A DNA stretch of 64,000 nucleotides. Source: Escherichia phage ECML-606-1. The notes below the pieces were generated by a model that saw only the letters and a list, made by a program, of their open reading frames with translations, did no database searches and was not told the DNA's origin. Positions 7,495 to 63,602 of this stretch are shown piece by piece. The stretch lies in the sequence record OL631484.1. One strand, written 5' to 3'. A program made the translations under genes and the position numbers. Position 1 is the stretch's first letter; the number at the start of each line of letters is the position of its first letter.

Positions 7495-7498
7495 TTTT

Positions 7499-7740: not shown

Positions 7741-7766
7741 GCCGCCCCCGTGGGCGGCTTTTTTTT
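7741..7766 (+). terminator. rho-independent terminator after tRNA island
   Basis: GCCGCCCCCGTGGGCGGC hairpin followed by T8. Confidence 0.7.
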
Positions 7767-7783
7767 AGCCTGAGGAGTAACCC

Positions 7784-8299
7784 ATGAATATCTTTCGCCG
7801 CATCCTGAATAAAATCTTTGGCATCCCACCAGTGCCACCAGAGCCGAAGATCGAGCCGCCAAAGTTCGGCGGTGATTTCCCGCGCCCGGTCTCCGTCACC
7901 ATGAAGGCTACCCAGACCGTCAAGCAGGATCCGATGGCTGCGGCGGTCGCCCGTGCAAAAAGGGACGCGGAGAAAACTGCCGTAAAAGGCAACGTCAGCA
8001 GCGCGAGCAGCAGCTCAACACAGCGCCCATTTATATCCCTGTTAGATCCGACTCATCCGCTCTATCCTTTTAATGGCGTGCGGGATGATGATGCAGCCAC
8101 TCAGCACCGCGTACAGCATCAGGACGCGACGACGATCAGCGATACCACGCACCGACACGTCGCCAGCCATTCTGAGCCAGTGCGTAGCCATAGCTCGCAC
8201 AGCAGCAGCCATTCAAGCCCAAGCTATGACCATAGCCCCAGCCATGACAGCAGCCCATCCTATGACAGCTCACCGTCACACCACGACAGCAGCTGGTAA
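7784..8299 (+). CDS. hypothetical protein with Ser/His-rich repetitive C-terminus
   Basis: 171 aa, GAGGAG SD, C-terminal SPSYD/SPSHD repeats; only plus-strand gene inside the structural module. Confidence 0.5.
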   Translation: MNIFRRILNKIFGIPPVPPEPKIEPPKFGGDFPRPVSVTMKATQTVKQDPMAAAVARAKRDAEKTAVKGNVSSASSSSTQRPFISLLDPTHPLYPFNGVRDDDAATQHRVQHQDATTISDTTHRHVASHSEPVRSHSSHSSSHSSPSYDHSPSHDSSPSYDSSPSHHDSSW

Positions 8300-10960: not shown

Positions 10961-13810
10961 TTATGCTTTGAGTCGGTCTACTTCATCCGCCAGCGTTTTG
11001 ACGGATTCGATCAGGTCTGCGATGAGCGCGTTTTGAGACACGTTCAGCACCCCGTTAACCTCATAGGTATAGATCGGGTCAATCTTCTGGAGCTCCTGCG
11101 CGATGTAGCCACGGTCATGGCGTCCGTCATGCTTCCAGTCGAATTCCCGCGCAACAATCTCACGGATGCGAGACAGTGCGCCCGGCTTGGCATCCTCCGC
11201 ATTATCTTTCAGCGCGATATCGGAGGCATTAAACTGAACTGTGCCCAAAGGCCCGGTAATATCACCGTTAGCTTGGAAAGCCCAGTCTTTATTTACCCCT
11301 CCTGAGTTTTGCTGGAGGGTGATTTGGTAAGCGAGAAGATCCGTACTGGCTCCTCGGACAGCGCCAGTCTGAACAAAGCCATTACACCATTGGTAGCTTG
11401 TCCATCCCGTCCAACCATTCGGGATGCTGCTCTTTCTGTTATTGAGCTCGACTCTGTTTTGCTCACCTGCTCGCACCCCACAACCACCACCCGCAGCGGT
11501 ATGCAGATCATTACAGGTGACGAGCGCGGAGATATCCAGCGCGTTTCCTGTCCATGGCTTGATGTTATTCGCCAGCAAATAACGTGGCACCGTCAAGTCA
11601 CCATTGGTATCAAAGATGAAGTTTTGGAAGGCCCCGGAAACCTCATTTTTTGCCTGAATGACAGCCATGCCCACGATAGATGATTCAGTGGTGGCATATC
11701 TTCCGCTGGCTACCAGCGAGGCCGAAAGTTTATCCGCGCCACCGATGGTATAGCGGGAATAGACCATCCCGCCCAGCACGCTCGTATTAGCACCCGGCGC
11801 GGTAGCATCACCAGAGATCACGCTGAAATTGGTGTTCGCTGACTGGAAGGCACCAGAGGCTCGGATGATCCAGATGCCCACAACCGAGTTCGGGCGCACC
11901 TCAGTACCACGTCCATACGCGGGGTTAGATCGGCTAGCATTAAATTTAAACCCGTTATAGGTTCCCGCTACAACTGGACCGGGTTGAATATTGTTAGGGA
12001 ATGAGTCCCCTTGATAAACGGCGCTTTGAGGGTCGTTAACCGCCGCGAATGCACCAGCACCTGAGTTGCCGATAAGACCCGTAATATTCGGCGCGGCGTT
12101 GTATTTAATCGCGCCTACGCCGCCGATCTCGCTAGTAAAATGACCACCACCATCACCACGCAGGAAGTTAGCCCCCGGAGTAAATCCATCAGCGTATGCG
12201 CCATTAAGATCAGGCACACGGAATTTCCCTGTACTTGATTGCTTAACATATGCGCCTCGGTTTTCACCTTTCCGCAGACCGTCAGCGCTACCGCTGTTTT
12301 GCCAAAGGGCTTCCGTTACCGTGACAACCCTGCCAGAATTCACCAAAGCATACAGATCTGCGGTTGCAGGATCTGTTTGGCTGCATTCCTGACCGTCGGC
12401 GGGGATATATCCAACGGGTAAGCTGGCACGCGATCCGTTCCACCATTCCACCGCGCCAACAAAGTTATTAAGCACGCCATTCATCGTTGGGCCAGAGCCG
12501 CCTGAGTTTGCTTTCAGCTGGCGCAGCGTAACTGCGTCATAATCTCCTGCTGCGTCGGCATTCAGCGTAAGCGGGCCTTGCAGACCTGTCAGCTGGGTGA
12601 TGTCACTATTAACACCAGACTGTGCCCCTTTTCTCCAGTCGGTGAATACGCTGCCATCATAGCTGCGCGAAGCAATACGCCCACTTTTAGCGATGTAAAC
12701 CTGAGTGACGCCACCAGATGCGCCGAACGGGAATACAGTCAGCTGACCGGGCTCATCAAACGGGAAGTTGTTGGCTGCAACAGCACCAGCAGCACTGGTC
12801 AGAGATACCACGCCATAATGCGCCGGGAGAATGCGGTCATTCAGGTTGATAACCGTTGAAATGCCATCCATCTGGGCGACGGCTTTCACTTCGGATGCCG
12901 CAGGCGGGTTATCGCTGGTATACATCCGGCGTGGTGCGCTCCAGTTGGTCGTCGTGCGCGTGATGCGATAAACCCACGTTGGCGTCGCGCCCTCAGACGC
13001 GAAGATGAAGACAGTCGATGTGCGATCCTCGTTGATGCCCTCACAGTGGATGCGCCACGCTGTAGCACCAGCGCCAGTGATGGTCGCCGGGAAGCCATTG
13101 GCAGTAATCGCATCGGCGGCCTTCACGCGCATAGTTTCACCTACGCGCCAAACGTGCGAGGTGATCGTGTCTCCGGTGGCAGCGAAGTCGAAGTAAGGCA
13201 GTTTGATGCCCATAAGTCCAGCATAACCCGCTGTGAGCACCGCCCCGTCGCGGGTGATGGTTGGACTGGCGATCTCCTGATCGGTCAGGGAGCGGGCGAT
13301 ATTCAGCGCTACGCCTCCGGTCGGCTGAGCACCGCTGCTGTGTGTCCAGTCGATTGTTGCACCGTTACCCGCGATCAGTAGGCCAGTCCATTTGCGCGGT
13401 GCAGTGCTCGGTGCGATGTTAAACCAGATCTCATAGGTGTCGGCTGCGACCTCCACCAGCTTACCGCCAAGGATGGTCGCTGAATTCGCGCCAAGATTGG
13501 TCTGAGCAGTAACGGTGATGCGTGCCGGATCACCGACAGTGGTCACAGAGCCGTCGCCTGTCTGCATGACAATGTTGGCGAAGCCAGTACCAGTCACCAC
13601 CATCAGCGTAATGGCAATTTTGCCCTGCGCGAGATTGGAGATCTTGCCCATCTTCTGCCAGCTATCTGACGTGATATCCCAGTCAGTGAGCATCACGGCA
13701 TTTTTATCCAGCATGGTCAGAGCATCGGTCAGCTTGCCCACATCAATTTTTAACGGGTTGGTCAGGTATGGGACAGGAAGCCCAAGCCGGGGAGTAGTTT
13801 TGTCCACCAT
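10961..13810 (-). CDS. tail fibre / tailspike protein with C-terminal intramolecular chaperone (peptidase S74-like) domain
   Basis: 949 aa; Gly/Thr/Ser/Asn-rich beta-type sequence; C-terminus NASDIALKDN...IAQELQKIDP matches the autoproteolytic chaperone signature of tail fibres. Confidence 0.65.
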   Translation of the reverse strand: MVDKTTPRLGLPVPYLTNPLKIDVGKLTDALTMLDKNAVMLTDWDITSDSWQKMGKISNLAQGKIAITLMVVTGTGFANIVMQTGDGSVTTVGDPARITVTAQTNLGANSATILGGKLVEVAADTYEIWFNIAPSTAPRKWTGLLIAGNGATIDWTHSSGAQPTGGVALNIARSLTDQEIASPTITRDGAVLTAGYAGLMGIKLPYFDFAATGDTITSHVWRVGETMRVKAADAITANGFPATITGAGATAWRIHCEGINEDRTSTVFIFASEGATPTWVYRITRTTTNWSAPRRMYTSDNPPAASEVKAVAQMDGISTVINLNDRILPAHYGVVSLTSAAGAVAANNFPFDEPGQLTVFPFGASGGVTQVYIAKSGRIASRSYDGSVFTDWRKGAQSGVNSDITQLTGLQGPLTLNADAAGDYDAVTLRQLKANSGGSGPTMNGVLNNFVGAVEWWNGSRASLPVGYIPADGQECSQTDPATADLYALVNSGRVVTVTEALWQNSGSADGLRKGENRGAYVKQSSTGKFRVPDLNGAYADGFTPGANFLRGDGGGHFTSEIGGVGAIKYNAAPNITGLIGNSGAGAFAAVNDPQSAVYQGDSFPNNIQPGPVVAGTYNGFKFNASRSNPAYGRGTEVRPNSVVGIWIIRASGAFQSANTNFSVISGDATAPGANTSVLGGMVYSRYTIGGADKLSASLVASGRYATTESSIVGMAVIQAKNEVSGAFQNFIFDTNGDLTVPRYLLANNIKPWTGNALDISALVTCNDLHTAAGGGCGVRAGEQNRVELNNRKSSIPNGWTGWTSYQWCNGFVQTGAVRGASTDLLAYQITLQQNSGGVNKDWAFQANGDITGPLGTVQFNASDIALKDNAEDAKPGALSRIREIVAREFDWKHDGRHDRGYIAQELQKIDPIYTYEVNGVLNVSQNALIADLIESVKTLADEVDRLKA

Positions 13811-13860
13811 TTCCGGGATCTCTCTTGTTCAGGAATAGCGGATATTCTGGAATCACTACG

Positions 13861-14581: not shown

Positions 14582-14617
14582 GGCGTATTCCTCAGGTTGG
14601 ATTGGTTAACGGCTGAG

Positions 14618-14646
14618 ATAATACGTCATGCGTGCCGTATGGTCAA
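14618..14646 (-). promoter_or_regulatory. sigma70-like promoter TTGACC-N17-TATTAT with palindromic operator in spacer
   Basis: minus-strand hexamers; spacer contains ACGGCACGCATGACGT. Confidence 0.45.
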
Positions 14647-15507
14647 TCTTTTTTCTTACCTAAATACGCGTCAAGCACCATTTGGTCGGGCTTCATGTTC
14701 ATTAGCTCGCGCAGCTTGTTTTTTGGTACCAGCTGGACGGCCTGCGTTTCCCAGCCCATCGCTACCGGGGAACCACCGACGCGCTTCGCCAGATACATGC
14801 GAGAAACAGACGTGGTGCGCTCAAAGTCACCCAGCACGCCAGTGATCTCGATCTGTAGCCCGGACTCCTCCCATGTCTCTTTGATGGCGTTCTGCTGGAG
14901 CGTGAGCCCCGGCTCAGTGCCACCCTTCGGGAAAGTGTTCTGGTAGCCGCCGAAAGCGTTGGTCGGGCTGATAATCCACACGCGACCGTCAGGCTCCTCA
15001 ATGATGACGCCGGACGCTGGACGCTTCCCGGCTGGTACCATTAACGGCTGCTCGGTCATCTGTTTGGTGCCCTTCACAAAGGCCCAGCCCGCGTCGGTTT
15101 TCGGTGCGCCAGTCCACGGCGCGACCGGGACGCCATTCAGCTCCTGCGGTGCTGCACCATTAGGCGTGAAGGTGGCCACCTCGTTGCTCGCGGCCCACGT
15201 TGGCGCTTCGGTCGGTTTGCTCGGATGGTTAACCACGACGCGGTTGCCCTTCTCACCCAGTCGCGGATGGTGGACAATCTTCGTCGGTAGTCCTTTGCTG
15301 GCGGTAGTCCTGTGCGTGCCATACGGCGTCGTGGGCAGCGCTGGCTTGCGGTAATAGGCTTTCTTGGCCTGAGGCTTCGCAGGCGCTTTGGGGGCCGCAG
15401 GCGCATCAGGTTTGGCTGCTGCCTTCCCGTTGTCGTGCGGCTTCACCCATACGCCATCGCTCCGGCGATAGCCCTTCACCTGCGCTTTCAGGAAAAGTTT
15501 AGTCATT
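14643..15507 (-). CDS. Nudix hydrolase (putative)
   Basis: Nudix box GGTEPGLTLQQNAIKETWEESGL (REx2EExGU with R to K); Pro/Ala/Lys-rich N-terminal region; ATG at 15507. Confidence 0.55.
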
Positions 15508-15981
15508 GCCTTCCACTCCCAGCATCCATTGCGCCATGGATTCGACGCTGGACTGCACGCGGGCGGCGATTTCTGCATCCTTCCCGCCCTTGTCAAATGC
15601 CTGGTAAATACTGATCGCAAAGCGGGCCATCGCGTGCGCGACGATCAGCGCGGGATCCGTTTCATCCTTCGCCAGCCCCTTCACGTTCTGGATCCAGCGC
15701 GGCAGCGCGAAGTCATTCCAGCCCGGCAGCACGCTAAAGCCTGCGGTGTTACCCACAAAGATGTTAGCGGTGTTCAGCGCCTGCGCACGGTCGGCCTCCA
15801 GCGCTTCTTTCTCAGTCATCTGGTTGGCCTGCACCTTAGCGATGCGTCCCACGATGTCCTTGGCGAAGTTATTCAGGATGGTGCGTGCCACGTTGATATC
15901 GCCCAGATAAACGCTGCCATCAGCAGCGTTCAGACCTTCGATAAACCACGTTGGATCAGTATGTCGGTTCAATTCAGCCAC
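15499..15981 (-). CDS. hypothetical protein
   Basis: 160 aa; GTG at 15981 with AAGGGGGC SD; overlaps Nudix start by 9 nt. Confidence 0.4.
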   Translation of the reverse strand: MAELNRHTDPTWFIEGLNAADGSVYLGDINVARTILNNFAKDIVGRIAKVQANQMTEKEALEADRAQALNTANIFVGNTAGFSVLPGWNDFALPRWIQNVKGLAKDETDPALIVAHAMARFAISIYQAFDKGGKDAEIAARVQSSVESMAQWMLGVEGND

Positions 15982-15990
15982 AGAGCCCCC

Positions 15991-18900
15991 TTATACGCTC
16001 GGCAGGATGATACATTCCACAACGGTCATGCCGCTGCCGCCAAAGCCATCGGCGTCCTTAGTCCCCGATTCGTTCACCTTAGTGATGAGTAGGCGGGTAT
16101 TAGGTGGCAGGATAATTTCTTTTTCCCCGGTATGGTGCGAGATAGATCCACCACTCGGAAGCGAGCCAGCGCCCGCATAGATACCTTTTACGCCGGGGCC
16201 TGCTGTCATTTTGAGGTGAATATTACCACTCCACACGTCTGGACTGATAGACGTGGACATAATTGCAGGCTCCATGATGACCTTGCCGACCGACGCTTTC
16301 AGCTTGGAGAGATCACCGCTGCCCAGACTGAATTTGCGCCCGAACGTGGTACCCGGCGAAATTTCATGGCCCATACCAGACAGCGCCTGCGCTGCTGCTT
16401 TCGCTTCTGCGCTTGGGTTGCCCTTCCACAGTCCGCTGTTCATCTGCTTATAACTGCTACCAGTATACGCCTGCACGGCCTGCTTTTGTGTCATCGGCAG
16501 CTTTTCCCACACTTCCTGTGCTGCTTTGGCATAAGTGTTTGTGGTCAGCGTGCCAGCCTTGAAAGTGGTTTTAGTAATGCCAAGGTCTTCCGGCTCAACA
16601 ATCCCCGGATGGCCCAGCACCAGCAGGTTCCCGATCTTGTCTGCATCGTTACCGCTCCAGTTTTCCGGCTTGTATTCTTCGTGCATCGAATACAGCGGGT
16701 GATCGCCGCCGATACGGAACTGCTCGGCTTCATGCCCGGTAAGCTGGCTCTTAATCTCGTTAATCGCCTGCATCGCGTAGCCTTTGATGTGCTGCGATGG
16801 GTGATCGAGCACTGGCACCTGTCCGGTAACAGCTCCGGTGTCTTTGTCAAAGGTTGGCGCGGTCAGGCCGCGAATGGCTTCCGGGTCTCCGGTCAGCGCC
16901 GCAGAATAAATGGCCTGCGCCGCGTCGTGGTTCCCTTTGTTCAGGAACTCTTTGGAGGACGGGCCGGATTTGCCAACGCCAGACCAGTTGAGGAAGTCAG
17001 GCGGGGTACTGATTTTCTCCGGCTTGAATTTCTGCATTTTGATGATCTGCTCGGCTTCCGGGTACTTCTCAGCCAGATACTCTTTGCGCTTGATGAGCGT
17101 TTCCACCAGCTCTTTTTTGGCCTTCTCATCGCCCGGCCCATACTGGTTGACCATGTGCGCGATTTTGGCGTCGGAGATAGCCAGCACCTTGGAGACAGAC
17201 GCGGCGATATCGGCCTCAGTCATGCCACCGAAGACGGCGGCGCTGTTCGCGTTCATCTTCGGATCCATCAGTGACTCCAGCTCCTTAACTACCGGGCCAA
17301 ATTCTTTCTTCGCACCCTGCGCACGGAACATCAGCGAGCCGCCCGCATCGACGCGGTGAATGGTGCCGTCATCTTTCAGCTGCACGTTGTCTTTCGCCAG
17401 CCCCACGACATCCCAGTTACCCAGCCACGCATCAACGGCAAAGCCTTCCAGCATACCCTTGGCCTTCGCCAGCGCTGCATGGGTTTTGGCCTTCTTGATG
17501 TTCTCCCACTTCGAGGCAATAGCCATTTTCCCGTCCTTGGTGACGATCATGGCGTCCTGCGCGGACAGGCCAGCGGCGCTATACAGTTTCGCTGCCAGCA
17601 CCTCAGCCTTGGCGTGCTCCTCGTTATCCGGGAACTTCACATACCATTCCTGCCCATCGGCGTCCTTCATTTTCATGCCTTCATTCGAACCGCCTTGGTT
17701 GCCCCCGGTCACTGTCCACTCATCGACGCTGATCGGCTCTTTCTTCTTCCACTGGTACTTTTTGACCTCCATCGGGCCATCAGCGGCAAGGCCATTCTCT
17801 GCCGGGTTGCTGGTCGCGGCGGTAGCATTCATCAGCTGCGCGACGCCATTCATAGCATAGGTGCCATTCACCTCAGGGTTATAACCGGACTTAACCTTGA
17901 TCCCATTAGCCATCAGCATCATCGACGCATATTGCGCCAGCGCCTTTTTACCCGGCGCGGTCGGGCCATACTCCGTTGAGACCTTAATTTTCATCCCAAA
18001 CTCGCCATAAATCAGCATCGAACCATCGGCTTTCTGCATGATGACGCCTTTGGTGCCGCCGCCTTTGGTCAGCTTGGCTTTGAGGTTATCTACATATTTC
18101 ATGTAGTGATCCTGCTGCCAAGCGCTCAGGCCAAGCGCAGCGAAGTCAGGTGCTGGGATCTCGTCAGGATTGGCCCTAACCCAGCGCCCGTTTTTCAGGA
18201 TCAGCATCCCATTGGCACCCGGCTTCATGTCGCCTTCTTTCGGGCCATCGCCTTCTTTCTGGCCCTCGTCGGCTTTCTTAGCATCTTCTTCGGCTACGGT
18301 GTTTTTGATAGCCGTCAGGATCCCTTCGATAGCCACAGGAGTAAAGTCGTTGATGATAAGCACGCTCTTAATGGTGCTGACCGCATCCACTTTGTCCGGG
18401 TTGGCGTCGTAGTATTCCTTGCACGCCACCGACGCCTTGACGACCTTTTGCAGCCCGGTTTTGGTCTCCGCGATGCTCTTGATGTCGTCCAGCAGTTTCA
18501 GGTCGATATTACCCAGCTCCGGCGCGGCAGGTTCAGGCGCAGGCGCAGGCTCCTCAGCTCCGGTGATCTGATCCTGTACAAAGGTCATGGTGCTGATCGC
18601 GTAATCCGTCATGCTCATCTTGACCACATCGGTGCCCTGATTCGCCATCAGCGCATACGCGGACTCTTTGACGCTGTTCAGCACGGCCTCTTTCATTTCC
18701 GGCGAGTCGGTGTACTTCGCCAGCATCGCCATCGCTGCCAGACCATCCAGCGCATCTGCATCCGCCATGCTATCGCCCTTGTAACTGGCTTTCGGGATCC
18801 CCTGCGGGACGCCGTGCATGTTGATGCTGTCTTTCAGTATGGACTGGAGGACAGGGATATGGGCCACGTTATCGCCTGCGGCCTTCACGATGTCCTGATA

Positions 18901-21900
18901 GGTGGCAGGGTTGTCGCCTTTCTTCGCCACGTAATCCTGTACAGCCATCAGCGTTTCGAGGTTGTCTTTGGCGTTGTTGAAGACCAGCCCAAGGTCATAC
19001 ATGTTTTTCGGCTTGCCCGGCGCAGCGGTCAGCTTGTCCAGCACCTCAGCCATGTACTCCTTGTACTTGGTACCGTTGATCGTGGTGCTCGGCGTCACGT
19101 TCTGCTCATATTTCATAGCCTCAATGAGCAGCTTTTTGCTGTTCTCATCCTTCGCCAGTGTTGCAGCGATGGCGTAGCCCTGAAAATCAGTTGCCTCGGT
19201 CGAGTAGAAACCAACGTCCGGCTTAATCGGCAGGTTGAGCGGCTTGCCATGCTTTTTGAAGTAAGCCTGACCGATTTCAGACGCAGCGTAGACGTGCCCG
19301 CTGTTCATTTTCAGGATATTGTCGATAACAGTCGTGTACGCGCCCTTATCGCCATGGTTATCCTTGATGAATTCCAGACCGATGCTGGTCGCATCATCGC
19401 CGTTCGCGCCAGCGAGGGCCTGTTTGAGCGCCACAATCTCGCTGCCCGCGCTGCCATTGGCTGAGGTCTCAGGCATATCCTGCTGTAAGATCCAGTGCCC
19501 ATTATGGAAGACCAGAATACCGCCTTTACCCTGCTTGGTATCACCTTCTTTCGGGCCATCCTCTACCAGCCACTTATTGACCTCCTGCTGGTACAGTTTA
19601 ACCTGCACAGCAGCTGGCTCTGAAAGGTGAAGCTCGCTCAGCTCATTAAAGTGCTTGGCGATCACATCAGGATCTGATTCTTTGCCTTTGTGAACTTCTT
19701 CGGCAATGACGTTATAGAGGGTCTGCACTTTCGTGCCATAGGTTTTCACCGTGTCGCTGGTTGGTGATACCAGCGGTTTTTCTGGCTCAGTCCCGTAAGT
19801 CTCACTCCACCACTTACCATAGGCTTTCTTGCCAGCGATAAAGAACTCATTCGCCAGCTCGTTAAACCCATTGTCCTTCATGGCCTCAGCCAGCACCACC
19901 AGCTGCGGCGCATCATGCCCATTCGCCGTCATCCAGTCGCCAGCAATCGCGTCGGCCTGTTTTTCGTCCTTGGCATCTGTCAGCGCATCAAAGGCGCTTT
20001 CCCACATGGCGTAATCATTCAGGATCGCTTTCTTCTCCTGCTTACGCTCATGTTTGGTGGCAATCTGCTCGGATTTCGCCGCAGCCTGAGACTTCTCGGC
20101 CCATGAATCGTACAGCTTCCCGACGCTGGACTCGGAGAAGGCCAGATCGCTACCGTAATAGGTAGACGCCTGCTCAATGAATGCCTCGCCTTTTGTCTTC
20201 GCCCACTCGTTGAACTCAGCCACATCGGCAAAATCCGGCAGCTGCGGCTCAGGGGTTGGCGCACGCTCCTGCTTGATCTGCGGTGGCGTCGGCAGGGATT
20301 TCACGGAGATATCGCCCAGCTCTTTCTTGGCGGCGGTCACGGCTTCGATGATCCACGCGGACAGATCAACCTTCTGGAAGGCATCAATCAGGTTCTGGTC
20401 ATCACGGATCACTGTCACCATGTCGTTGATGTTGTCCACAGCCAGCGCCCAGTTACCCGCGTTGAGGTCATTCTGGATGTCCTCACAGATGCCGTCGATA
20501 AACGCATCACCAGTCTGCGGAGGATTGGAGAAAGTCTTCACTCCCTCAGGCTTAGGCGCAGCAGCAAGGCCCAGAGACTCCGCCAGATTGACCGCAGGCT
20601 CTTTGCCAGCCATTACCTGCTGGTAAACCTCATTCTGCGTGTTGGAGAAGCCGGAGATATGGCCCCAGTCGCCCTTCTCGTTAACCCACATACCAGATCC
20701 CGGATTCTTCGGATCCGCGACGATGACTGCGCTGGTATTGGTCGGGTAAACGCCTGCGTCTGGAGTCGTGGACAGCACGCCATTCCACATGTTCTTGATG
20801 ACGTTTTGCTGCTTCTGGGTCAGGTGATTCGGCTTGCCCAGCTCCACCAGCTCGGTCGGGTACTCGCTATGGTGATAGTCGGAAATGTAGCCCAGATTGT
20901 CCGGGGTTTTGGTGTTGCCACCAAAGCCGATCAGTTTCAGGTACTGTCCCGCTTGGAACGGCTTAGCCAGCGGCTCACCCTTCTTGCTTATAGGCCATGC
21001 GGTCGCGTGCCCCATCAGCACTTTCAGGTACGGCTTACCGTCCTTGTCGTAGGTCTGGATGATTGAGCCTGCGGGCAGGTTCGGCATATCGGAGATCGAC
21101 AGCTTCTGGCCCTTTTTGAACTCACCAGCGACAGGCTGATCCTTGAGCGGCTCGCCAGTCTCCTGATTGTGCCAGCGACCGTCTTTGAAAACCTGCATCC
21201 CGTTTTTGCCCATGCGGGTATCACCTTCCTGCGGGCCTTCCTCAGCCCGGACGGTTTTCTGCTGCTCAACCTCTGCGCTGGCCTTCTGATCCTTTTCTGC
21301 CTGGCTAAACTGGCCCAGCATTGGATGCACGGCGTCTTTGCCGATAACCACTTTGATATCCGGGTAGCCCAGCGCTGCCAGCGCGTTATTCGCAGCCTTG
21401 GCGACTTTGAGCCCGTAGGTGTTTTTTCCGTATGTCATCGCCAGAATGCCGTTGATGTTGCCTACTTCGCCAGCGGCCTTGATAGCGGCGATCTGCGCGT
21501 TGTAGCTCTTGGCATTCTTAATGTTCTCCGCGACGGCGAACTGGCTCCAGTCGATAGCGTCCATGGCCTTCTTCGACACGGATGCTTTCGGGGCTGGCTT
21601 GCCTTCGGCGGTGTCCGGCTGCGCCGGGGAGGTAGCGATGATTTCAACCGCGCTCAATGGGCTCGGCTCCTCGGACTGCACCAGCGGCTTATTCGGATTC
21701 TCACCCGTCAGCAGCGCCAGCTTTTGCCCGTAGAGGTTCAGCAGCTTTTTGCTGTTCGGGGTGATGCCCTTCCAGCTTTTCGCCTTGCTCTTGATAGCTT
21801 CCAGCTCCGCCAGACTGGTGGCGTCGATGACCTTCTGAGCCTGCGCCTCATACGCGGTGCGCACGCCAGTGGAGTTTTTGCCGGATTCAAATTTAGGCAT

Positions 21901-22764
21901 GACGATTTCGCCTGGCTTCGGTGCTTCGGCAGCAGGTGTTGAGGCTTTCTGGACTTCTTCTTTAGCTGCGTTTTTTTTCTCAGGTGAAGGAGACGGCCCA
22001 TCTTTTGGCATAATAAGGCTTAGTTTTTTTGCTCCACCCGGTTCAGTTTTAAAGTATCCAAACTGCGTACCGTAATTCTCAATCGCGTGCAGCTGGTGCT
22101 GTTTTAAATCACCAATCTCAATAGTGATGACGTTATTTTTTACTTTGTATGCTTCAATCGGTGGCAGACCTAGGTAACTCTCAATTCCAGAAACAATGGC
22201 TTGTTGTTTGGCTGTCAAATTACCTGTAGCTGGTTTTGTTGCTGCCTTTGCCTCTTGCGCTACGGCTTCAATGGCCTGCTCAGCCATCTGATCGACGGTC
22301 TCAGGCTCTCTCTCGTATGTGGCGATGGCAGGGTGCTCACCCGCTTTCTGGCCCGCGCTGACCTTCTCCTGCGAGCCCATTTGCTCCAGCAGATAGTTGG
22401 CAATCGCCACCAGCTTTTTACCGTGGGTGTTCACGCCATAGGATGATCCCAGAATCGCCGCGATATCGCCGTTGGCAGCGTGCTGCAACAGGTTCGGGAC
22501 GTGTTTCTGGTTGAAATGCTTAATGTCTTTGTTGGTCGCCTCTTTCTCAGCAGGATAGAGCAGCTGGCTCGACTCCTCCTTAGGCATGGCGTAAGGCTTA
22601 TGGCCTTTGCCACCAGCTTTAGGGTGCGCGGCTTTCGGGGCGTTCTTGACGCCCTTCATGTCCGGCGTGGTTTTCTTCCAGCGCCCATTGATCAGAGCAT
22701 AGCCCGCTTGGTGGGCGAATTTTTGATTAAGTGCTTTTGCGAGGACAAGCATGGTGGCCACCAT
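15991..22764 (-). CDS. giant virion-associated protein with C-terminal ADP-ribosyltransferase-like domain
   Basis: 2257 aa; C-terminus has TFGRKF, IMSTSIS (STS) and GEKEIILPP (ExE); recurring internal motifs EGDTKxGxxGxxVFxNGRW and ILGSSYGVNTHG / ILAMTYGKNTYG. Confidence 0.65.
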   Translation of the reverse strand: MVATMLVLAKALNQKFAHQAGYALINGRWKKTTPDMKGVKNAPKAAHPKAGGKGHKPYAMPKEESSQLLYPAEKEATNKDIKHFNQKHVPNLLQHAANGDIAAILGSSYGVNTHGKKLVAIANYLLEQMGSQEKVSAGQKAGEHPAIATYEREPETVDQMAEQAIEAVAQEAKAATKPATGNLTAKQQAIVSGIESYLGLPPIEAYKVKNNVITIEIGDLKQHQLHAIENYGTQFGYFKTEPGGAKKLSLIMPKDGPSPSPEKKNAAKEEVQKASTPAAEAPKPGEIVMPKFESGKNSTGVRTAYEAQAQKVIDATSLAELEAIKSKAKSWKGITPNSKKLLNLYGQKLALLTGENPNKPLVQSEEPSPLSAVEIIATSPAQPDTAEGKPAPKASVSKKAMDAIDWSQFAVAENIKNAKSYNAQIAAIKAAGEVGNINGILAMTYGKNTYGLKVAKAANNALAALGYPDIKVVIGKDAVHPMLGQFSQAEKDQKASAEVEQQKTVRAEEGPQEGDTRMGKNGMQVFKDGRWHNQETGEPLKDQPVAGEFKKGQKLSISDMPNLPAGSIIQTYDKDGKPYLKVLMGHATAWPISKKGEPLAKPFQAGQYLKLIGFGGNTKTPDNLGYISDYHHSEYPTELVELGKPNHLTQKQQNVIKNMWNGVLSTTPDAGVYPTNTSAVIVADPKNPGSGMWVNEKGDWGHISGFSNTQNEVYQQVMAGKEPAVNLAESLGLAAAPKPEGVKTFSNPPQTGDAFIDGICEDIQNDLNAGNWALAVDNINDMVTVIRDDQNLIDAFQKVDLSAWIIEAVTAAKKELGDISVKSLPTPPQIKQERAPTPEPQLPDFADVAEFNEWAKTKGEAFIEQASTYYGSDLAFSESSVGKLYDSWAEKSQAAAKSEQIATKHERKQEKKAILNDYAMWESAFDALTDAKDEKQADAIAGDWMTANGHDAPQLVVLAEAMKDNGFNELANEFFIAGKKAYGKWWSETYGTEPEKPLVSPTSDTVKTYGTKVQTLYNVIAEEVHKGKESDPDVIAKHFNELSELHLSEPAAVQVKLYQQEVNKWLVEDGPKEGDTKQGKGGILVFHNGHWILQQDMPETSANGSAGSEIVALKQALAGANGDDATSIGLEFIKDNHGDKGAYTTVIDNILKMNSGHVYAASEIGQAYFKKHGKPLNLPIKPDVGFYSTEATDFQGYAIAATLAKDENSKKLLIEAMKYEQNVTPSTTINGTKYKEYMAEVLDKLTAAPGKPKNMYDLGLVFNNAKDNLETLMAVQDYVAKKGDNPATYQDIVKAAGDNVAHIPVLQSILKDSINMHGVPQGIPKASYKGDSMADADALDGLAAMAMLAKYTDSPEMKEAVLNSVKESAYALMANQGTDVVKMSMTDYAISTMTFVQDQITGAEEPAPAPEPAAPELGNIDLKLLDDIKSIAETKTGLQKVVKASVACKEYYDANPDKVDAVSTIKSVLIINDFTPVAIEGILTAIKNTVAEEDAKKADEGQKEGDGPKEGDMKPGANGMLILKNGRWVRANPDEIPAPDFAALGLSAWQQDHYMKYVDNLKAKLTKGGGTKGVIMQKADGSMLIYGEFGMKIKVSTEYGPTAPGKKALAQYASMMLMANGIKVKSGYNPEVNGTYAMNGVAQLMNATAATSNPAENGLAADGPMEVKKYQWKKKEPISVDEWTVTGGNQGGSNEGMKMKDADGQEWYVKFPDNEEHAKAEVLAAKLYSAAGLSAQDAMIVTKDGKMAIASKWENIKKAKTHAALAKAKGMLEGFAVDAWLGNWDVVGLAKDNVQLKDDGTIHRVDAGGSLMFRAQGAKKEFGPVVKELESLMDPKMNANSAAVFGGMTEADIAASVSKVLAISDAKIAHMVNQYGPGDEKAKKELVETLIKRKEYLAEKYPEAEQIIKMQKFKPEKISTPPDFLNWSGVGKSGPSSKEFLNKGNHDAAQAIYSAALTGDPEAIRGLTAPTFDKDTGAVTGQVPVLDHPSQHIKGYAMQAINEIKSQLTGHEAEQFRIGGDHPLYSMHEEYKPENWSGNDADKIGNLLVLGHPGIVEPEDLGITKTTFKAGTLTTNTYAKAAQEVWEKLPMTQKQAVQAYTGSSYKQMNSGLWKGNPSAEAKAAAQALSGMGHEISPGTTFGRKFSLGSGDLSKLKASVGKVIMEPAIMSTSISPDVWSGNIHLKMTAGPGVKGIYAGAGSLPSGGSISHHTGEKEIILPPNTRLLITKVNESGTKDADGFGGSGMTVVECIILPSV

Positions 22765-24694: not shown

Positions 24695-24723
24695 AAAAAA
24701 GCCTCACCTTGGGTTGGTGAGGC
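24695..24723 (-). terminator. hairpin plus U-run whose 3' arm carries the SD of the next gene
   Basis: GCCUCACC-loop-GGUGAGGC then U6 then ATG at 24694. Confidence 0.45.
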
Positions 24724-24724
24724 T

Positions 24725-24753
24725 ATATTATTACGTCATGGGTGACGTGTCAA
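24725..24753 (-). promoter_or_regulatory. sigma70-like promoter TTGACA-N17-TAATAT with perfect palindrome ACGTCATGGGTGACGT in spacer
   Basis: minus-strand hexamers; palindrome at 24733-24748. Confidence 0.5.
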
Positions 24754-26496: not shown

Positions 26497-26524
26497 ATGA
26501 TACGTTATGCGTGACGTAATGCAA
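26497..26524 (-). promoter_or_regulatory. sigma70-like promoter TTGCAT-N16-TATCAT with operator-like palindrome ACGTTATGCGTGACGT
   Basis: minus-strand hexamers; palindrome at 26502-26517. Confidence 0.45.
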
Positions 26525-26556
26525 GTATTATTTACGCCACTGCTGACGCATGGAGT

Positions 26557-28558: not shown

Positions 28559-28587
28559 AATTATTTACGGCATACGTGACGCATCAA
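28559..28587 (-). promoter_or_regulatory. sigma70-like promoter TTGATG-N17-ATAATT with CGTCACGTATGCCG element in spacer
   Basis: minus-strand hexamers; overlaps stop codon of methyltransferase gene. Confidence 0.35.
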
Positions 28588-35367: not shown

Positions 35368-35397
35368 GGCTCGCTCCTTACGTCATTGACGCCGTTG

Positions 35398-36837: not shown

Positions 36838-36970
36838 GCTTATCCAGCACCTCAGTGATTATGGCGTCCCGCGAAGCGGCGGGATCAGCCTCAATGCGTT
36901 GCAGCATTTCAGCCCGGCATAACCGGGCGCGTTGCCGCAGCGCATTTTTCAGCTCCTGCGGCAGTGCCAT
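36734..36970 (-). CDS. hypothetical protein
   Basis: 78 aa ORF overlapping neighbour. Confidence 0.25.
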   Translation of the reverse strand: MALPQELKNALRQRARLCRAEMLQRIEADPAASRDAIITEVLDKHVAQLPAMLPGTITPKSWLVYYVRLLRKESTHGA

Positions 36971-37518
36971 TAGCCAGCCGCGGCCTGCTCGTCACCATTA
37001 AGCGGGTGCCCAGCATCAGGCTCAGCGGTCGCGCCAGCTCCTACCAGCTCGTTTTCCGGCCCAGCCACTTCCGGCTTTGGGGTGGCAACATCTGCCGGGT
37101 TAGCCTGCCAGCGACGATAGAGATCCATCGCTTTGGCCTGCTCCTCAGCACGGCGCTGGAAATTCTCACCAAACTCACGCGGATAGAACCAGACATCATC
37201 GATCAGGTTGCCGATGCCCAGAATCTGATTGCCCTGAATGGCGATACGGCACGCCTGACCATTCAGGGCTTCCCACGTAGCCACTCCAACGGTGCTCAGC
37301 ACGCGACCGATGTACGCGATACCGAAAGCGGTCTGCTGGTCTTCCTGCTCCATTGACTGAGGATCGACGTGCAGGATGTAGCCGCCAAAGTTAACGCCCA
37401 GATGCTGCGCTTTCAGCTGGATTGAGGAATTGATGGTTGCGCCATCCCATCCCAGCTGGGTGTTAGCAATACGCGCATTGAGCACCTCAACCGGGCGCTG
37501 TTCAGTGGTTTGTTCCAT
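36970..37518 (-). CDS. hypothetical protein
   Basis: 182 aa ORF. Confidence 0.4.
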   Translation of the reverse strand: MEQTTEQRPVEVLNARIANTQLGWDGATINSSIQLKAQHLGVNFGGYILHVDPQSMEQEDQQTAFGIAYIGRVLSTVGVATWEALNGQACRIAIQGNQILGIGNLIDDVWFYPREFGENFQRRAEEQAKAMDLYRRWQANPADVATPKPEVAGPENELVGAGATAEPDAGHPLNGDEQAAAG

Positions 37519-37893: not shown

Positions 37894-37933
37894 TGGTGTT
37901 TCCTGCTTAGTTCAAAGGTACGGCAAGTGTAAC

Positions 37934-37949
37934 ACGTCATTATTGACGT
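37934..37949. promoter_or_regulatory. perfect palindromic operator candidate ACGTCATTATTGACGT
   Basis: 16-bp inverted repeat 45 nt upstream of the XRE regulator start codon. Confidence 0.5.
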
Positions 37950-40115: not shown

Positions 40116-40144
40116 ACTATACGGCACAGGTGACGCGTCCGCAA
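40116..40144 (-). promoter_or_regulatory. sigma70-like promoter TTGCGG-N17-TATAGT with operator-like palindrome in spacer
   Basis: minus-strand hexamers; spacer contains ACGGCACAGGTGACGC. Confidence 0.45.
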
Positions 40145-47815: not shown

Positions 47816-47843
47816 CGCATTTTTGCGGCAATAATGACGTAAA

Positions 47844-49236: not shown

Positions 49237-49662
49237 TTAGAAATATCCATCAGCATCAGGGCGGACGGCAAGGCGGATTTTTTCGAGGGCGTCGGTAGCG
49301 ATGTGTAACTGATTAATTACGTCATCACGAATCTCTTTCACCTTACCCGGCTGCACATCATCCATCATGCTGAACATGGCGAAAGCGCCGCGCACAAATT
49401 TATCGGTGTAGCCCTTCTCGTCTTTATCCAGCGGAATGGATTTATTGAGCGCCGTCACGGTGCGCTCGAAGTCCTCATAAATATCAGCGCGTGGCGTTTC
49501 AGGTGCCGGAATGGGGCGGGAGCTCGTCACCAGTTTGCCGCCAATGATCTCGGCGTCGCCATTAATCCACTGGTGAACCTGCGGGGCGTGGACGCCCATA
49601 GCGGTGGCGAAAGCGGTTTTATTGCCCGCGTAATACAGCTCAATATAGGTGACTAATTTCAT
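49237..49662 (-). CDS. HTH DNA-binding protein (Cro/CI-type)
   Basis: TAFATAMGVHAPQVHQWINGD helix-turn-helix; ATG 49662 with GAGGA SD (track ORF starts at TTG 49701); iteron array lies directly downstream. Confidence 0.55.
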   Translation of the reverse strand: MKLVTYIELYYAGNKTAFATAMGVHAPQVHQWINGDAEIIGGKLVTSSRPIPAPETPRADIYEDFERTVTALNKSIPLDKDEKGYTDKFVRGAFAMFSMMDDVQPGKVKEIRDDVINQLHIATDALEKIRLAVRPDADGYF

Positions 49663-49664
49663 CA

Positions 49665-49865
49665 CTATTTCCTCAGAATAAACGCCCGGAACACGGGCCA
49701 AAACAGAATGTCGTACATCAGCCAGAACACCAGCAGAGCGCAGGCCAGATACCAGAGATCGCGGTTGCCAGCCGCGTCATAAATCATGTAGCCGGGGAAG
49801 GCGAGCAGGCAGAAACAAATCAGCACGCTCAGCAGCTCACAGGCGCGGTTGATTGCCTTAATCAC
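49665..49865 (-). CDS. small membrane protein
   Basis: 66 aa, two hydrophobic helices. Confidence 0.4.
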   Translation of the reverse strand: MIKAINRACELLSVLICFCLLAFPGYMIYDAAGNRDLWYLACALLVFWLMYDILFWPVFRAFILRK

Positions 49866-51909: not shown

Positions 51910-51943
51910 TTCGTTTATCTCGTTACCTTGGGTTGGTGAGATA

Positions 51944-51972
51944 AATATACGTCATGGGTGACGGGTGCGCAA
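51944..51972 (-). promoter_or_regulatory. sigma70-like promoter TTGCGC-N17-TATATT with palindrome ACGTCATGGGTGACGG in spacer
   Basis: minus-strand hexamers; palindrome 51949-51964. Confidence 0.45.
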
Positions 51973-52038: not shown

Positions 52039-52377
52039 TTAGTTACAGCGGACGGTGCCAAACGAATCGCGTCGGCAGGTGCTGCCATCGCTTCCCCGCG
52101 TCGTGCCGAAGCTGTCAGTGCGCCAGCTGTTTCCGTGGTTGTCACGGGTGGTGCCGAAGCTGTCCGTGCGGTACACGGAGCCATCGCTGCCGCGCGTGGT
52201 GCCAAACGAATCGGTGCGCCAGCTATTGCCATGGTTATCGCGCGTTGTCCCAAAGGAATCCGTGCGGTAGGTGGTGCCGTCATCACAGCGCGTGGTGCCG
52301 AAGGAGTCAGAGCGGCAGGTCAGCGCGGAGGCGTTAAAGCTGGCGGCGAGCGCCAGCAGGAGGATCAGTTTTTTCAT
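52039..52377 (-). CDS. secreted tandem-repeat protein
   Basis: signal peptide MKKLILLLALAASFNASA, then six 16-aa repeats of RTDSFGTTR(D/G)NHGNSW type with Cys at both ends. Confidence 0.6.
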   Translation of the reverse strand: MKKLILLLALAASFNASALTCRSDSFGTTRCDDGTTYRTDSFGTTRDNHGNSWRTDSFGTTRGSDGSVYRTDSFGTTRDNHGNSWRTDSFGTTRGSDGSTCRRDSFGTVRCN

Positions 52378-52784: not shown

Positions 52785-52857
52785 AATTAAGCCCCCATAG
52801 CTCTTTCGGAAACAGCCTAGCGGTTAAGCTGGGCCATAATATCGGGTTGATGAAATG

Positions 52858-52885
52858 ATTGTACGTCACTAGTGACGTAATGCAA
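52858..52885 (-). promoter_or_regulatory. sigma70-like promoter TTGCAT-N16-TACAAT with perfect palindrome ACGTCACTAGTGACGT in spacer
   Basis: minus-strand hexamers; palindrome 52863-52878. Confidence 0.5.
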
Positions 52886-52896
52886 TACCCGGACAT

Positions 52897-52926
52897 AAAA
52901 AAAGCCCCGATTAGTGGGGCTTTTTA
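52897..52926. terminator. bidirectional rho-independent terminator
   Basis: AGCCCCGATTAGTGGGGCT hairpin flanked by A7 and T5. Confidence 0.6.
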
Positions 52927-53445
52927 CTATTCTGCTTTCAGATGTTCAATCTGCCGTTTCAACGCGGCGATCTCCCAGTCCTTTTCCTCAATCGCCCGGT
53001 TTTTATCGGTCAGGGCCTGACGACACATATCATTCAGTTTCAGGACATCCTGCCGGACGCCTTCGATTCTGGCGTCGCGCTCGGCTACCTTGCAGCGTTC
53101 GAGGTGCAAAGCCTCGCAAGTTTTGCTGTGAGCATCAATCTCAGCTTTATAGGCCAGCTTAGTGGTCTGGTGATCTTCCTCAGATTTGGTCAGAGCCAGC
53201 CGCAGACGCATCAATTCCAGCGCGTCATTACCGCCGAAACTAAACGGATCCTGATAGGTGCGCTGCGTGCGGCGATACTCGCGCTGCTCAGGCTGAGCCT
53301 TTGCGCCGGGCACGTTGATAGTGCGCAGGTCGATCCCGGCCTGATTGGCATAAGCCACGGCACGACCGAAAGCCGTTGCGGCTTCCTCTTTGTTCGTGGT
53401 GCCGTAGGCCAGTGCCAGCAGCTTTTCAATTTTCGCCCTACTCAT
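52927..53445 (-). CDS. hypothetical coiled-coil protein
   Basis: 172 aa; GAGGAAG SD. Confidence 0.45.
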   Translation of the reverse strand: MSRAKIEKLLALAYGTTNKEEAATAFGRAVAYANQAGIDLRTINVPGAKAQPEQREYRRTQRTYQDPFSFGGNDALELMRLRLALTKSEEDHQTTKLAYKAEIDAHSKTCEALHLERCKVAERDARIEGVRQDVLKLNDMCRQALTDKNRAIEEKDWEIAALKRQIEHLKAE

Positions 53446-53484
53446 AAAAACTTCCTCAGGTTGTATCTTGGGTTGTTGCGCCGG

Positions 53485-53503
53485 ATTATAATCAAAAAAG
53501 AGG
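53485..53503 (+). promoter_or_regulatory. promoter-like element TTATAATCAAAAAAGAGG (first copy)
   Basis: TATAAT -10-like hexamer plus A-tract and SD; near-identical copy at 53738-53756. Confidence 0.35.
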
Positions 53504-53516
53504 AGATTGGAAGCAT

Positions 53517-53744
53517 ATGAAAAAACATTATTCCGAAATAAACCCCCATGAGGAGGACTTTCTTTATCGTCGCCTCGCTGCTGTCTGCCCGGTCACACAG
53601 AACGGCAGAAACATGGATATCGCTCTCCAGTGTGACGGCGACACGCAGAGCGTTACCAGCGTCGCCTATGGTTATGGCCCGGTGATTGGAAAATGGGACA
53701 CGCCAGAACTCAGCGACGGACGGGTGAAGATTCCGCGCTCATAA
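53517..53744 (+). CDS. hypothetical protein
   Basis: 75 aa; GAGGAG SD. Confidence 0.45.
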   Translation: MKKHYSEINPHEEDFLYRRLAAVCPVTQNGRNMDIALQCDGDTQSVTSVAYGYGPVIGKWDTPELSDGRVKIPRS

Positions 53745-53812
53745 TCAAAAAAGAGGTTGCGCCACGTATGCCGTAAGGCTATTATTCAGCCATCTACTAA
53801 GAGGGACGGAAT

Positions 53813-54154
53813 ATGAAAAAGGTACTCATCGCGGCGCTGCTGGTTTCAGCCAGCGCGGCAGCAACAGAAACACCCGCAATGTCGTTTATCTGCCCGATGA
53901 GCGACGGCTCTCAGATGGTGATGCGCGTCTATGGCAATGACACCATTGACCTCTTTGAGGAGGGCACCGAACCGGGCGACCGTAAGATGCTGGTTAAGGT
54001 CAGCGAAACGCCTCAGGATGTGATGCTGCAAGTGTTTGACCGCAGCTCTCACCAGCTGGTTGGTACCGTCGCGGTTATCAATGGCAAAACCTCCCTGCTG
54101 GCTAACGACGCGGACGGCGATTGCAACATTACTCAGCGCCGGGGCTCACAATGA
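53813..54154 (+). CDS. secreted/periplasmic small protein
   Basis: signal peptide MKKVLIAALLVSASAAA; two Cys. Confidence 0.5.
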   Translation: MKKVLIAALLVSASAAATETPAMSFICPMSDGSQMVMRVYGNDTIDLFEEGTEPGDRKMLVKVSETPQDVMLQVFDRSSHQLVGTVAVINGKTSLLANDADGDCNITQRRGSQ

Positions 54155-54522
54155 AAACTGTAGCAGCCATTGCGCTGATCATGCTCTCCGGCGCTGTGCA
54201 GGCCAAAAGCACCGCAGGCGAGCAGCATTACCCGAAGGGGATCTACCATTGCGTTGATGAAAAAGCGGGTAACTACCTGCTGCAAATCGGCCCCGGCAAC
54301 GTGGCGGCGATGGTTGACGCTGAGGATATTGGCGAGCTCAGGCTGGCGTACATTACCGCCCGCGACAAGATCAATAACTTCACGGCTACAATGAACGTTG
54401 AAGGCGATTACATTGGCAAAGTCACCGTAACACCGACGACCGCGCTGATTTCTTTCCCTGATAACACCGTGGCGAAGTGCGATAATAAGCGCCCGGTAAA
54501 CGCTGAGGAGTACCCGGAATGA
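54151..54522 (+). CDS. secreted/periplasmic small protein
   Basis: ATG 54151 in ATGA overlap; signal peptide MKTVAAIALIMLSGAVQA; two Cys. Confidence 0.5.
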   Translation: MKTVAAIALIMLSGAVQAKSTAGEQHYPKGIYHCVDEKAGNYLLQIGPGNVAAMVDAEDIGELRLAYITARDKINNFTATMNVEGDYIGKVTVTPTTALISFPDNTVAKCDNKRPVNAEEYPE

Positions 54523-63132: not shown

Positions 63133-63486
63133 TTATTTGGCTTTCTTTTCTTCTCGCTCTTGGCGCAGGAATTCCCCGCGCTGTTCGTCGGTCATGCTTT
63201 CCAGCATATCCCGGCGCTCCTGCTGAGCGGCTTCTACTTTTACCAGCTCGTCGATAAAGAGATCAACGACCATGATGGATTTGGGGATGCGCTCGAACCA
63301 GCGATCCGGTGTTGAGCGGCTAACGCCAGCTCGACGGCAGAGCTCAGCAATAGAGATACCGCAGGCATCAGCACGTTTGCGGATGTCTTTAATCCTCAGG
63401 TCGAAGTCCTCAGAAAACGAGCGTTCGAACTCAGGCGCTTTAACTGGGGGCTTAATGCCTTTTCGTGGTGCCATTTTACACTCCAT
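63133..63486 (-). CDS. HTH DNA-binding protein
   Basis: ISIAELCRRAGVSRSTPDRWF helix-turn-helix. Confidence 0.5.
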   Translation of the reverse strand: MECKMAPRKGIKPPVKAPEFERSFSEDFDLRIKDIRKRADACGISIAELCRRAGVSRSTPDRWFERIPKSIMVVDLFIDELVKVEAAQQERRDMLESMTDEQRGEFLRQEREEKKAK

Positions 63487-63602
63487 TTATAAATCGCCTC
63501 GATGTTATCTAATTTGCAGCGATTACGCCACAGGATTATCACTTGCAGCGTCCAAAATTTGCGTATAGAATCGCCGTCACACCCCAAACGATGGACGCTA
63601 AC

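Follow-up and report, generated by a model that had tools for sequence, protein, structure and literature searches.

The locus studied here lies within a window of 64,000 nucleotides from Escherichia phage ECML-606-1 (record OL631484.1; the window is this whole stretch of DNA), whose contig measures 94,968 bp. Positions 37934-37949 are occupied by an inverted repeat, a putative operator dyad, which separates an XRE-family gene from an upstream gene with no assigned function (Table 1); all genes around it are located on the minus strand. The 156-aa upstream ORF ends in Leu-Arg-Gln codons and a TAA stop, which make up the 5' arm and the centre of the dyad; the 3' arm is non-coding. An earlier note on this DNA had described the element as a perfect 16-bp palindrome located 45 nt upstream of the XRE gene, with an overlap to the stop codon of the gene before it. 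The overlap was confirmed, since the TAA at 37942-37940 falls within the repeat, and the other two statements require correction. Both 6-bp arms are perfectly complementary, whereas T7 and T10 clash in the central TTAT, so that 14 of the 16 positions match. The distance to the XRE start codon is 40 nt from the dyad end (37894-37933) and 48 nt counted from the dyad centre. The XRE ORF itself was borne out as a 121-aa reading frame with a match to HTH_3 at the curated cut-off.

This match (PF01381, residues 9-45) is borderline, with 23.4 bits against a cut-off of 23. The XRE protein also matched PHROG 955 ('HTH DNA binding protein') with an E value of 8.5e-6 and showed weak NCBIfam similarity to the HTH domains of HipB- and MqsA-type proteins. 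A profile search produced 95 matches limited to the HTH. Full-length relatives are rare, with about four clusters among 1.8 billion representative proteins and none found in species-representative genomes. In the AF2 model, the HTH (residues 1-60) has pLDDT values of 50-62 and the C-terminal helices have values of 84-91; in a Foldseek comparison, no PDB entry matched this low-confidence model with an E value under 2. Pfam and NCBIfam revealed neither an S24 peptidase domain nor a CI-type C-terminal domain. Distant matches to plasmid proteins annotated as 'transcriptional regulator' were discarded because of their different architecture, with the HTH occupying the second half of a 162-aa protein.

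The 182-aa protein encoded directly after XRE was modelled as an OB-fold with a pLDDT of 73. Its best match in the PDB was PrgE of pCF10 (E = 6e-3, probability 0.99), with LEF-3 and RMI1/2 next, and, judging from this model, it may be a single-stranded-DNA-binding protein.

Inverted repeats of any sequence with the 6-N4-6 layout are present 22 times in the window versus 15.9 times in shuffled sequences, and the single repeat at 37934 is therefore not significant. The specific pattern ACGTCA-N4-TGACGT is found in three exact copies and in 15 copies when up to two mismatches are allowed, versus 1.94 on average and never more than 6 in 100 shuffles. Ten of these 15 sites are positioned wholly within non-coding DNA, which represents 8.6% of the window (P = 5e-8). 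They occupy short gaps between co-directional genes and correspond to the minus-strand dyads and the dyad-like site of Table 1 other than the copy at 37934. Of all palindromes of this type in the window, only the site at 52863 is perfect over 16 bp, and it comes just after a hairpin-plus-T-run terminator (52896-52925). The palindrome at 37934 is one of at least 11 copies of what is, on sequence grounds, predicted to be a conserved protein-binding site within the promoters of a 95-kb E. coli phage.

Table 1. Dyads, associated promoter elements, neighbouring genes, leaders and plasmid cassettes. Positions refer to the window unless another sequence is named; the notation TTGnnn-Nx-TAnnnT gives -35, spacer and -10.
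Feature	Position	Strand	Remarks
Gene for 182-aa protein	36970-37518	-	Directly after XRE; follows XRE in all phage relatives examined
XRE-family gene, 121 aa	37528-37893	-	N-terminal HTH and C-terminal helical hairpin; candidate dyad-binding repressor
Extended -10 (putative), TGtTACACT	37926-37934	-	TG is the last dyad T plus the next base; read from sequence
Dyad operator (putative) 5' of XRE gene	37934-37949	-	ACGTCATTATTGACGT; on the gene strand ACGTCA-ATAA-TGACGT
Upstream neighbour gene, 156 aa	37940-38410	-	No assigned function; its end forms the 5' half and centre of the dyad
Dyad ACGTCACTAGTGACGT	52863-52878	-	Promoter TTGCAT(52885-52880)-N16-TACAAT(52863-52858)
Dyad CCGTCACCCATGACGT	51949-51964	-	Promoter TTGCGC-N17-TATATT; phiT5282EW ortholog at 80149
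Dyad ACGTCATTATTGCCGC	47825-47840	-	Weaker hexamers; 5' of 537-aa gene; orthologs L008 449, L018 1319
Dyad GCGTCACCTGTGCCGT	40121-40136	-	Promoter TTGCGG-N17-TATAGT; heads unit of YadA-like gene, two small genes, then XRE; orthologs in all relatives and plasmids L014, L016
Dyad-like site ACGGCGTCAATGACGT	35380-35395	-	After -10 TATTAT, before Shine-Dalgarno of DUF7696 gene; kept in L006-L012 (L007 with one mismatch)
Dyad GCGTCACGTATGCCGT	28567-28582	-	Promoter TTTGAT-N17-AATAAT; perfect arms in L006, L008, L009, L012 orthologs
Paired dyads	26502-26549	-	32 bp between centres; both conserved in phiT5282EW
Dyad of pair	26502-26517	-	Promoter TTGCAT-N16-TATCAT
Dyad of pair	26534-26549	-	Directly after terminator
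Dyad ACGTCACCCATGACGT, perfect arms	24733-24748	-	Promoter TTGACA-N15/17-AATAAT/TAATAT; heads unit with 2257-aa virion protein; Yersinia phage ortholog 76888
Dyad ACGGCACGCATGACGT	14623-14638	-	Promoter TTGACC-N17-TATTAT; heads unit running into terminase and head genes; Yersinia phage ortholog 85563
Weak dyad GCGCCACGTATGCCGT, 3 mismatches	53759-53774	+	Within promoter TTGCGC(53757-53762)-N17-TATTAT(53780-53785); precedes plus-strand gene
C/A-rich leaders	24700-24730, 51915-51945, 14590-14615, 52835-52857, 53455-53480	-	
C/A-rich leaders, Yersinia phage OR620963	76905-76945, 85580-85620, 49800-49830		
Plasmid cassette, L016 (AP022423.1)	5568-8688		
Plasmid cassette, L014 (NZ_OQ821049.1)	15286-18063		
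Plasmid cassette, L017 (pPEC414_4)	4006-5976		

The gene-strand consensus of the dyad is aCGTCAC-N2-aTGaCGT, with the half-site cores CGTC and GACG 10 bp apart. Among 11 aligned sites, 10 have a -10-like hexamer that begins with the final T of the dyad and the A next to it (sequences include TACAAT, TATCAT, TATTAT, TATAGT, and TATATT), and most sites have a TTGnnn element (TTGCAT, TTGACA, TTGCGC, TTGCGG, or TTGACC) 0-2 nt 5' of the dyad, resulting in spacers of 16-17 nt. With these two elements at its borders, the dyad therefore fills the spacer of a sigma-70-type promoter. By inspection, 8-10 of the 11 sites are located between or over the -35 and -10 elements at normal spacing. A generic promoter scan revealed 8 promoter-like sites against 8.7 in shuffles, which is no excess, so it is the constant register of dyad and hexamers that supports the promoter assignment. 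The spacer of a sigma-70 promoter is the classical place for a repressor operator, and this position, missed by the earlier note, is the main argument for repression.

The copy at 37934 is atypical in having the best arms, yet no good -35 element. Besides the putative extended -10 (Table 1), the scan proposed an alternative promoter, TTATCA-N17-AATAAT (37967-37939), with its -10 in the dyad centre. The promoter activity of this copy is uncertain because a good -35 is missing, and its 5' arm is also under coding constraint.

A C/A-rich leader (CCAACCCAAGG or TTAACCCAACC) is conserved in the first gene after several dyad promoters. It often forms a hairpin loop with varying stems (CCTCAC/GTGAGG, CTCAG/CTGAG, GCCCTT/AAGGGC), where the 3' arm contains the Shine-Dalgarno sequence and is followed by a T-run and the ATG. 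The motif is also present right before start codons elsewhere (AACCAACCCATG at 23795 and 7593) and was detected in 12 of 93 upstream regions compared to a background of 7%. It could represent a translational enhancer, a Shine-Dalgarno-sequestering element or a protein or RNA target.

Several further elements were recorded in the window. The divergent region at 63504-63550 (minus strand), 5' of a gene for a 117-aa protein with a weak HTH, heads the SSB/primase operon and contains the direct repeats CGCTGCAAGTGATAAT and CGCTGCAAATTAGATAAC at 63550-63535 and 63521-63504, which may constitute a separate operator for the replication module. A duplicated plus-strand stretch, (C/T)ATAATCAAAAAAGAGG, comprises a -10-like box and a Shine-Dalgarno sequence (53486-53504 and 53740-53756), and each copy precedes one of two successive plus-strand genes. 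The first copy belongs to a divergent promoter region that lacks a dyad and separates the DUF2786 gene (52927-53445) from the plus-strand cluster. The 112-aa protein encoded at 52039-52377 (minus strand) has a signal-peptide-like N-terminus and repeats such as DSFGTTRxxDGxxYRT/WRT; several nearby plus-strand ORFs (53813-54154, 54121-54522) also begin in a signal-peptide-like manner. The giant 2257-aa ORF (15991-22764, minus strand), which belongs to the unit headed by the 24733 dyad promoter, has a homologue in the Yersinia phage (52% identity) annotated as a particle-associated ADP-ribosyltransferase toxin. A tRNA gene is located at 7499-7571 (plus strand, Rfam 61.5 bits) on the strand opposite to the surrounding genes, and phiT5282EW has a tRNA-Asn at the equivalent place. 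The Pfam survey of the 79 window proteins revealed one match each for ParE-like toxin, phage ProQ C-terminal-like (RNA-binding), NUDIX, MT-A70, and N6_N4 methyltransferase domains.

For comparison, we used Enterobacter phage phiT5282EW, two IMG/VR contigs, several Logan/MAG contigs and the more distant Yersinia phage fHe-Yen8-01; a 1.6-kb contig of P0010 was left out as too short. Orthologous promoters with the dyad are present in phiT5282EW, the two IMG/VR contigs and four Logan contigs, where the arms are kept and the centres differ. Positions C2, G3, C5, A6, T11 and C14 are invariant in 26 aligned sites. Across these sites none of the six pairs (0/6) was changed on both sides, so that compensatory changes are absent, and the pair 4/13 is unpaired in 13 of the 26. 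Conserved arms, a variable centre and the absence of compensatory changes therefore point to a protein site and not to an RNA hairpin.

The arms of the dyad 5' of XRE are kept in phiT5282EW, L006, L007, L008-L010, L012 and plasmid pPEC414_4, and its non-coding 3' arm reads TGACGT or TGCCGT in all close relatives. The -10-like element after this dyad is TACACT (in the form TGnTACACT), TATGAT, TATCAT or TGCTATGAT in the relatives. L008-L010 contain tandem dyads 5' of XRE, with the second one following 29 bp downstream. The full pattern showed no enrichment in the Yersinia phage (5 versus 3.8), and the core CGTC-N6-GACG was enriched there (6 versus 0.7) in the identical promoter register, with the consensus aCGTC-TAATCC-GACGt. 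A third lineage, represented by contigs L018 and L023 (83-86 kb), has four exact cores in 15.9 kb versus 0.42 expected, at orthologous promoters. The operator reading of the earlier note is well supported by these comparisons, in which copies of the repeat are found within sigma-70-like promoters at no fewer than 11 probable transcription-unit starts, with conserved arms and a free centre.

The only part of the phage found on plasmids was a cassette with the YadA-like gene and XRE. This cassette of ~3 kb is carried by small and KPC-type enterobacterial plasmids and consists of two small membrane-protein genes, the dyad promoter, the YadA-like adhesin gene and XRE. Its copies differ, with one HNH insertion, one XRE truncated by Tn5403 and one copy flanked by IS26. 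On pPEC414_4, the only dyad in 9 kb fronts XRE and has perfect arms followed by the -10-like TGCTATGAT; the gene upstream of XRE is cut down to its last codons, yet the dyad is retained. The 182-aa neighbour is missing next to XRE on this plasmid. The small plasmids contain a further dyad, GCGTCAAAATTGACGC, with hexamers TTGAAG and TAAACT (L016 3940-4130; L014 about 13660-13850). It is followed by a CCAACCCAAGG leader and, ~140 nt on, by a strong terminator with no ORF between, and this locus may encode a small RNA under dyad control.

The dyad is positioned directly 5' of the XRE gene in 9 of 13 contexts. In the three complete remaining contexts (the Yersinia phage and plasmids L014 and L016), XRE is part of a dyad-promoter operon, namely that of the YadA-like gene promoter. 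From its placement, XRE is always within a predicted dyad-controlled unit. No dyad is located directly upstream of XRE in the Yersinia phage or in the third lineage, and there the XRE gene and its predecessor overlap. A Pfam survey for HTH domains covered 79 proteins of the window and 10 proteins of relatives encoded outside it; candidates were picked with phmmer and hmmsearch using approximate HTH query sequences, which gave noisy output. XRE was the sole protein at the curated HTH threshold among the 89 proteins surveyed.

The recognition helix of XRE, (H/Y)(T/S)LR(N/A)YQRKE, is conserved in the three lineages, and both its L-R-x-Y-Q-R-K-E part and the CGTC/GACG core of the dyad are invariant across them. 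The helix reads GHTLRNYQRKE in the ECML-606-1 lineage, where A6 and T11 are invariant (26/26 sites), GYTLRAYQRKE in the Yersinia phage and GHSLRAYQRKE in the third lineage, both with variable positions 6 and 11. Asn33 is present only in the lineage with invariant A6/T11, and Ala33 in the two lineages where these positions vary. This parallel between the residue at position 33 and the loss of A6/T11 conservation is suggestive, with the limit that the sites in the two other lineages are few (7 and 4) and that the covariation may reflect a single evolutionary event. XRE appears to be the best, if unproven, candidate repressor for the dyads, including its own. The proposal of the earlier note that XRE is the prime candidate for binding the dyad and regulates itself has gained strength indirectly, through its status as the only protein at the curated HTH threshold, through the frequent placement of the dyad directly 5' of its gene or of its operon, through the joint presence of gene and dyad on pPEC414_4, and through the covariation of its recognition helix with dyad positions 6 and 11.

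We consider it unlikely that a different phage protein binds the dyads in the promoters and that XRE has another target or role. In favour of this reading, XRE lies mid-operon among co-directional genes, which is not a classical divergent immunity region, and about 60 small proteins, further candidates for the binder, have no family match. Two other proteins, a 154-aa YdaS/Cro-like protein (49237-49701) and the 117-aa HTH protein (63133-63486), gave sub-threshold HTH matches and are conserved in the Yersinia phage. However, neither of these genes has a dyad directly upstream, and upstream of the 117-aa gene another motif is found, direct repeats of CGCTGCAA. On plasmids, furthermore, neither gene travels with the dyad, and no HTH protein of phage origin other than XRE is encoded there.

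With XRE as the candidate binder, we propose with moderate confidence that the dyad is an operator placed in sigma-70 spacers at most transcription-unit starts, where a dimer of XRE would bind, occlude the promoter and repress the genes downstream, its own gene included. The sequences and their comparison show the repeat itself, its enrichment, its constant placement in promoters, its conservation and the lack of covariation of the RNA type; from these we infer the binding of a protein, its identity as XRE, its dimeric state and its repressive effect. The dimer would contact the half-sites 10 bp apart, and the C-terminal helical hairpin, the best-modelled part of the protein (pLDDT 84-91), offers a plausible dimer interface. 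The bound dimer would cover approximately -29 to -12, that is, the spacer and the first bases of the -10 element, and would block RNA polymerase by promoter occlusion. At its own gene, XRE would occlude the weak extended -10 (TGtTACACT) and obstruct transcripts coming from the promoter at 40121. Since the dyad overlaps this weak -10 and lies in the path of these transcripts, XRE would limit its own synthesis (negative autoregulation). At the same time, it would adjust the activity of the remaining dyad promoters. Packaging and virion genes are likewise preceded by dyad promoters, and a pure repressor model leaves the late turn-on of these genes unexplained.

The same observation bears on the idea that whichever protein binds the dyad (XRE or another) serves to activate or license promoters during infection, making the dyad a phage promoter-specificity element. 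The dyad is present in almost every recognisable left-arm promoter, including those of packaging and virion genes, and the giant virion protein, an ADP-ribosyltransferase by the Yersinia phage annotation, could alter host RNA polymerase. However, the dyad promoters have good -35 and -10 hexamers and optimal spacers of 16-17 nt, so they should be active unaided, and an optimal promoter with a protein centred near -21 is normally closed to polymerase. MerR-type activation from the spacer requires spacers of 19-20 nt and was rejected for the spacers found here. Activation through the dyad is, in our judgement, quite improbable.

Binding of the dyads by a host transcription factor, which would tie the phage to host physiology, is even harder to accept and was rated as very improbable. 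The promoters are of host type, and the phage infects several enterobacterial genera with shared conserved regulators. Against this, the inner dyad positions are lineage-specific, with A6/T11 invariant in the ECML-606-1 lineage only, and such differences between phage lineages fit a co-evolving phage factor. To our knowledge, no known E. coli regulator has the consensus of this dyad.

A role of the palindrome as a hairpin in RNA or DNA, for example as terminator, processing site or intercistronic mRNA stabiliser, has almost no remaining likelihood and appears largely refuted by the compensatory-change analysis: the 16-mer does fold at -5.5 kcal/mol and the 37934 copy would be transcribed from the upstream promoter, but no copy of the dyad is followed by a T-run, departures in the 26 sites break pairs without any compensatory change, degenerate copies fail to fold (GCGUCACGUAUGCCGU, -1.3 kcal/mol, z = 0.09), the conserved feature is the arm sequence and not the pairing, and the dyads have no Rfam match in the window, where only the tRNA was found.

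The proposed repression by XRE resembles several known systems. The Cro/CI-type (XRE, HTH_3) repressors of lambda, 434 and P22 bind dyad operators that overlap promoters. The system described here shares with them a small HTH protein, a dyad in the size range of 14-18 bp with half-sites one helical turn apart, an operator over the -35/-10 elements of sigma-70 promoters, and negative autoregulation, which is proposed here. In contrast to the two tripartite operator clusters of these phages, the operators are single or sometimes paired and are dispersed over about 11 promoters, and the XRE gene has no divergent cro partner and is located inside a co-directional operon. A role of XRE as a CI-like prophage master repressor was rejected, as it has no S24 or oligomerisation domain and no divergent partner, and the plasmid and E. 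coli genome collections gave no sign of lysogeny.

Dispersed operators are also reported for the C1 repressor of phage P1, which is said to be a monomeric, non-XRE protein with asymmetric 17-mer operators. As in P1, one repressor would serve operators dispersed across ~94 kb of genome, with a different operon under the control of each; the differences are the symmetric dyad and the candidate 121-aa XRE-type HTH protein. P1 is a proven plasmid prophage.

Aca proteins reportedly repress the strong promoter of the operon that has their HTH gene at its downstream end; their inverted repeat is said to lie in or next to the -35/-10 elements, and the repression reportedly damps early transcription in lytic infection. 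The likeness lies in a small HTH gene placed downstream in a phage operon and an inverted repeat at the promoter. However, each Aca protein acts on one promoter, whereas the dyad is present at most promoters here. In addition, no anti-CRISPR gene was identified here, and the sequence similarity is that of a generic HTH only.

Type II antitoxins (HipB, MqsA, HigA) share with XRE the weak HTH similarity, a palindrome 5' of their own gene and a conserved downstream neighbour. However, the neighbour of XRE models as an OB-fold and not as a known toxin, and ten further dyads at unrelated promoters misfit a self-contained pair. Interpretation of XRE and the 182-aa protein as a toxin-antitoxin pair is weakened by this model and by the presence of XRE without its neighbour on pPEC414_4.

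The relatives of ECML-606-1 are phages of ~92-96 kb, and Yersinia phage fHe-Yen8-01 has an annotated tail-sheath gene. The whole phage was absent from 72,556 plasmids (PLSDB) and from 5,426 complete E. coli genomes. Assignment to the SSU5-like phage-plasmids was rejected on these grounds, that is, the phage relatives of this size, one of them with a tail sheath, and the absence from both collections. Our literature search for ECML-606, fHe-Yen8-01 and the dyad motif found no relevant paper. In a broader and more doubtful version of the repressor model, a strictly lytic 95-kb myovirus would use one XRE protein as a genome-wide governor of transcription, and XRE with its operator, captured by enterobacterial plasmids along with a YadA-like adhesin gene, would form a portable, self-regulating cassette. 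With the dyad in nearly every host-type promoter, a single negative-feedback loop would then determine the output of the entire left arm.

Repressors acting on dyads in promoter spacers are well known from textbooks, so no concept is overturned by these results, and the switch is of an ordinary kind, found here in an unstudied phage family. If the proposed model is true, it would provide the first regulatory map of this family (ECML-606-1, phiT5282EW and fHe-Yen8-01), comprising about 11 promoters with a single operator consensus and a single candidate regulator. It would also offer a compact orthogonal repressor/operator pair for synthetic biology, together with a natural specificity variant, in which Asn33 is paired with A6/T11 and Ala33 with less constrained inner positions.
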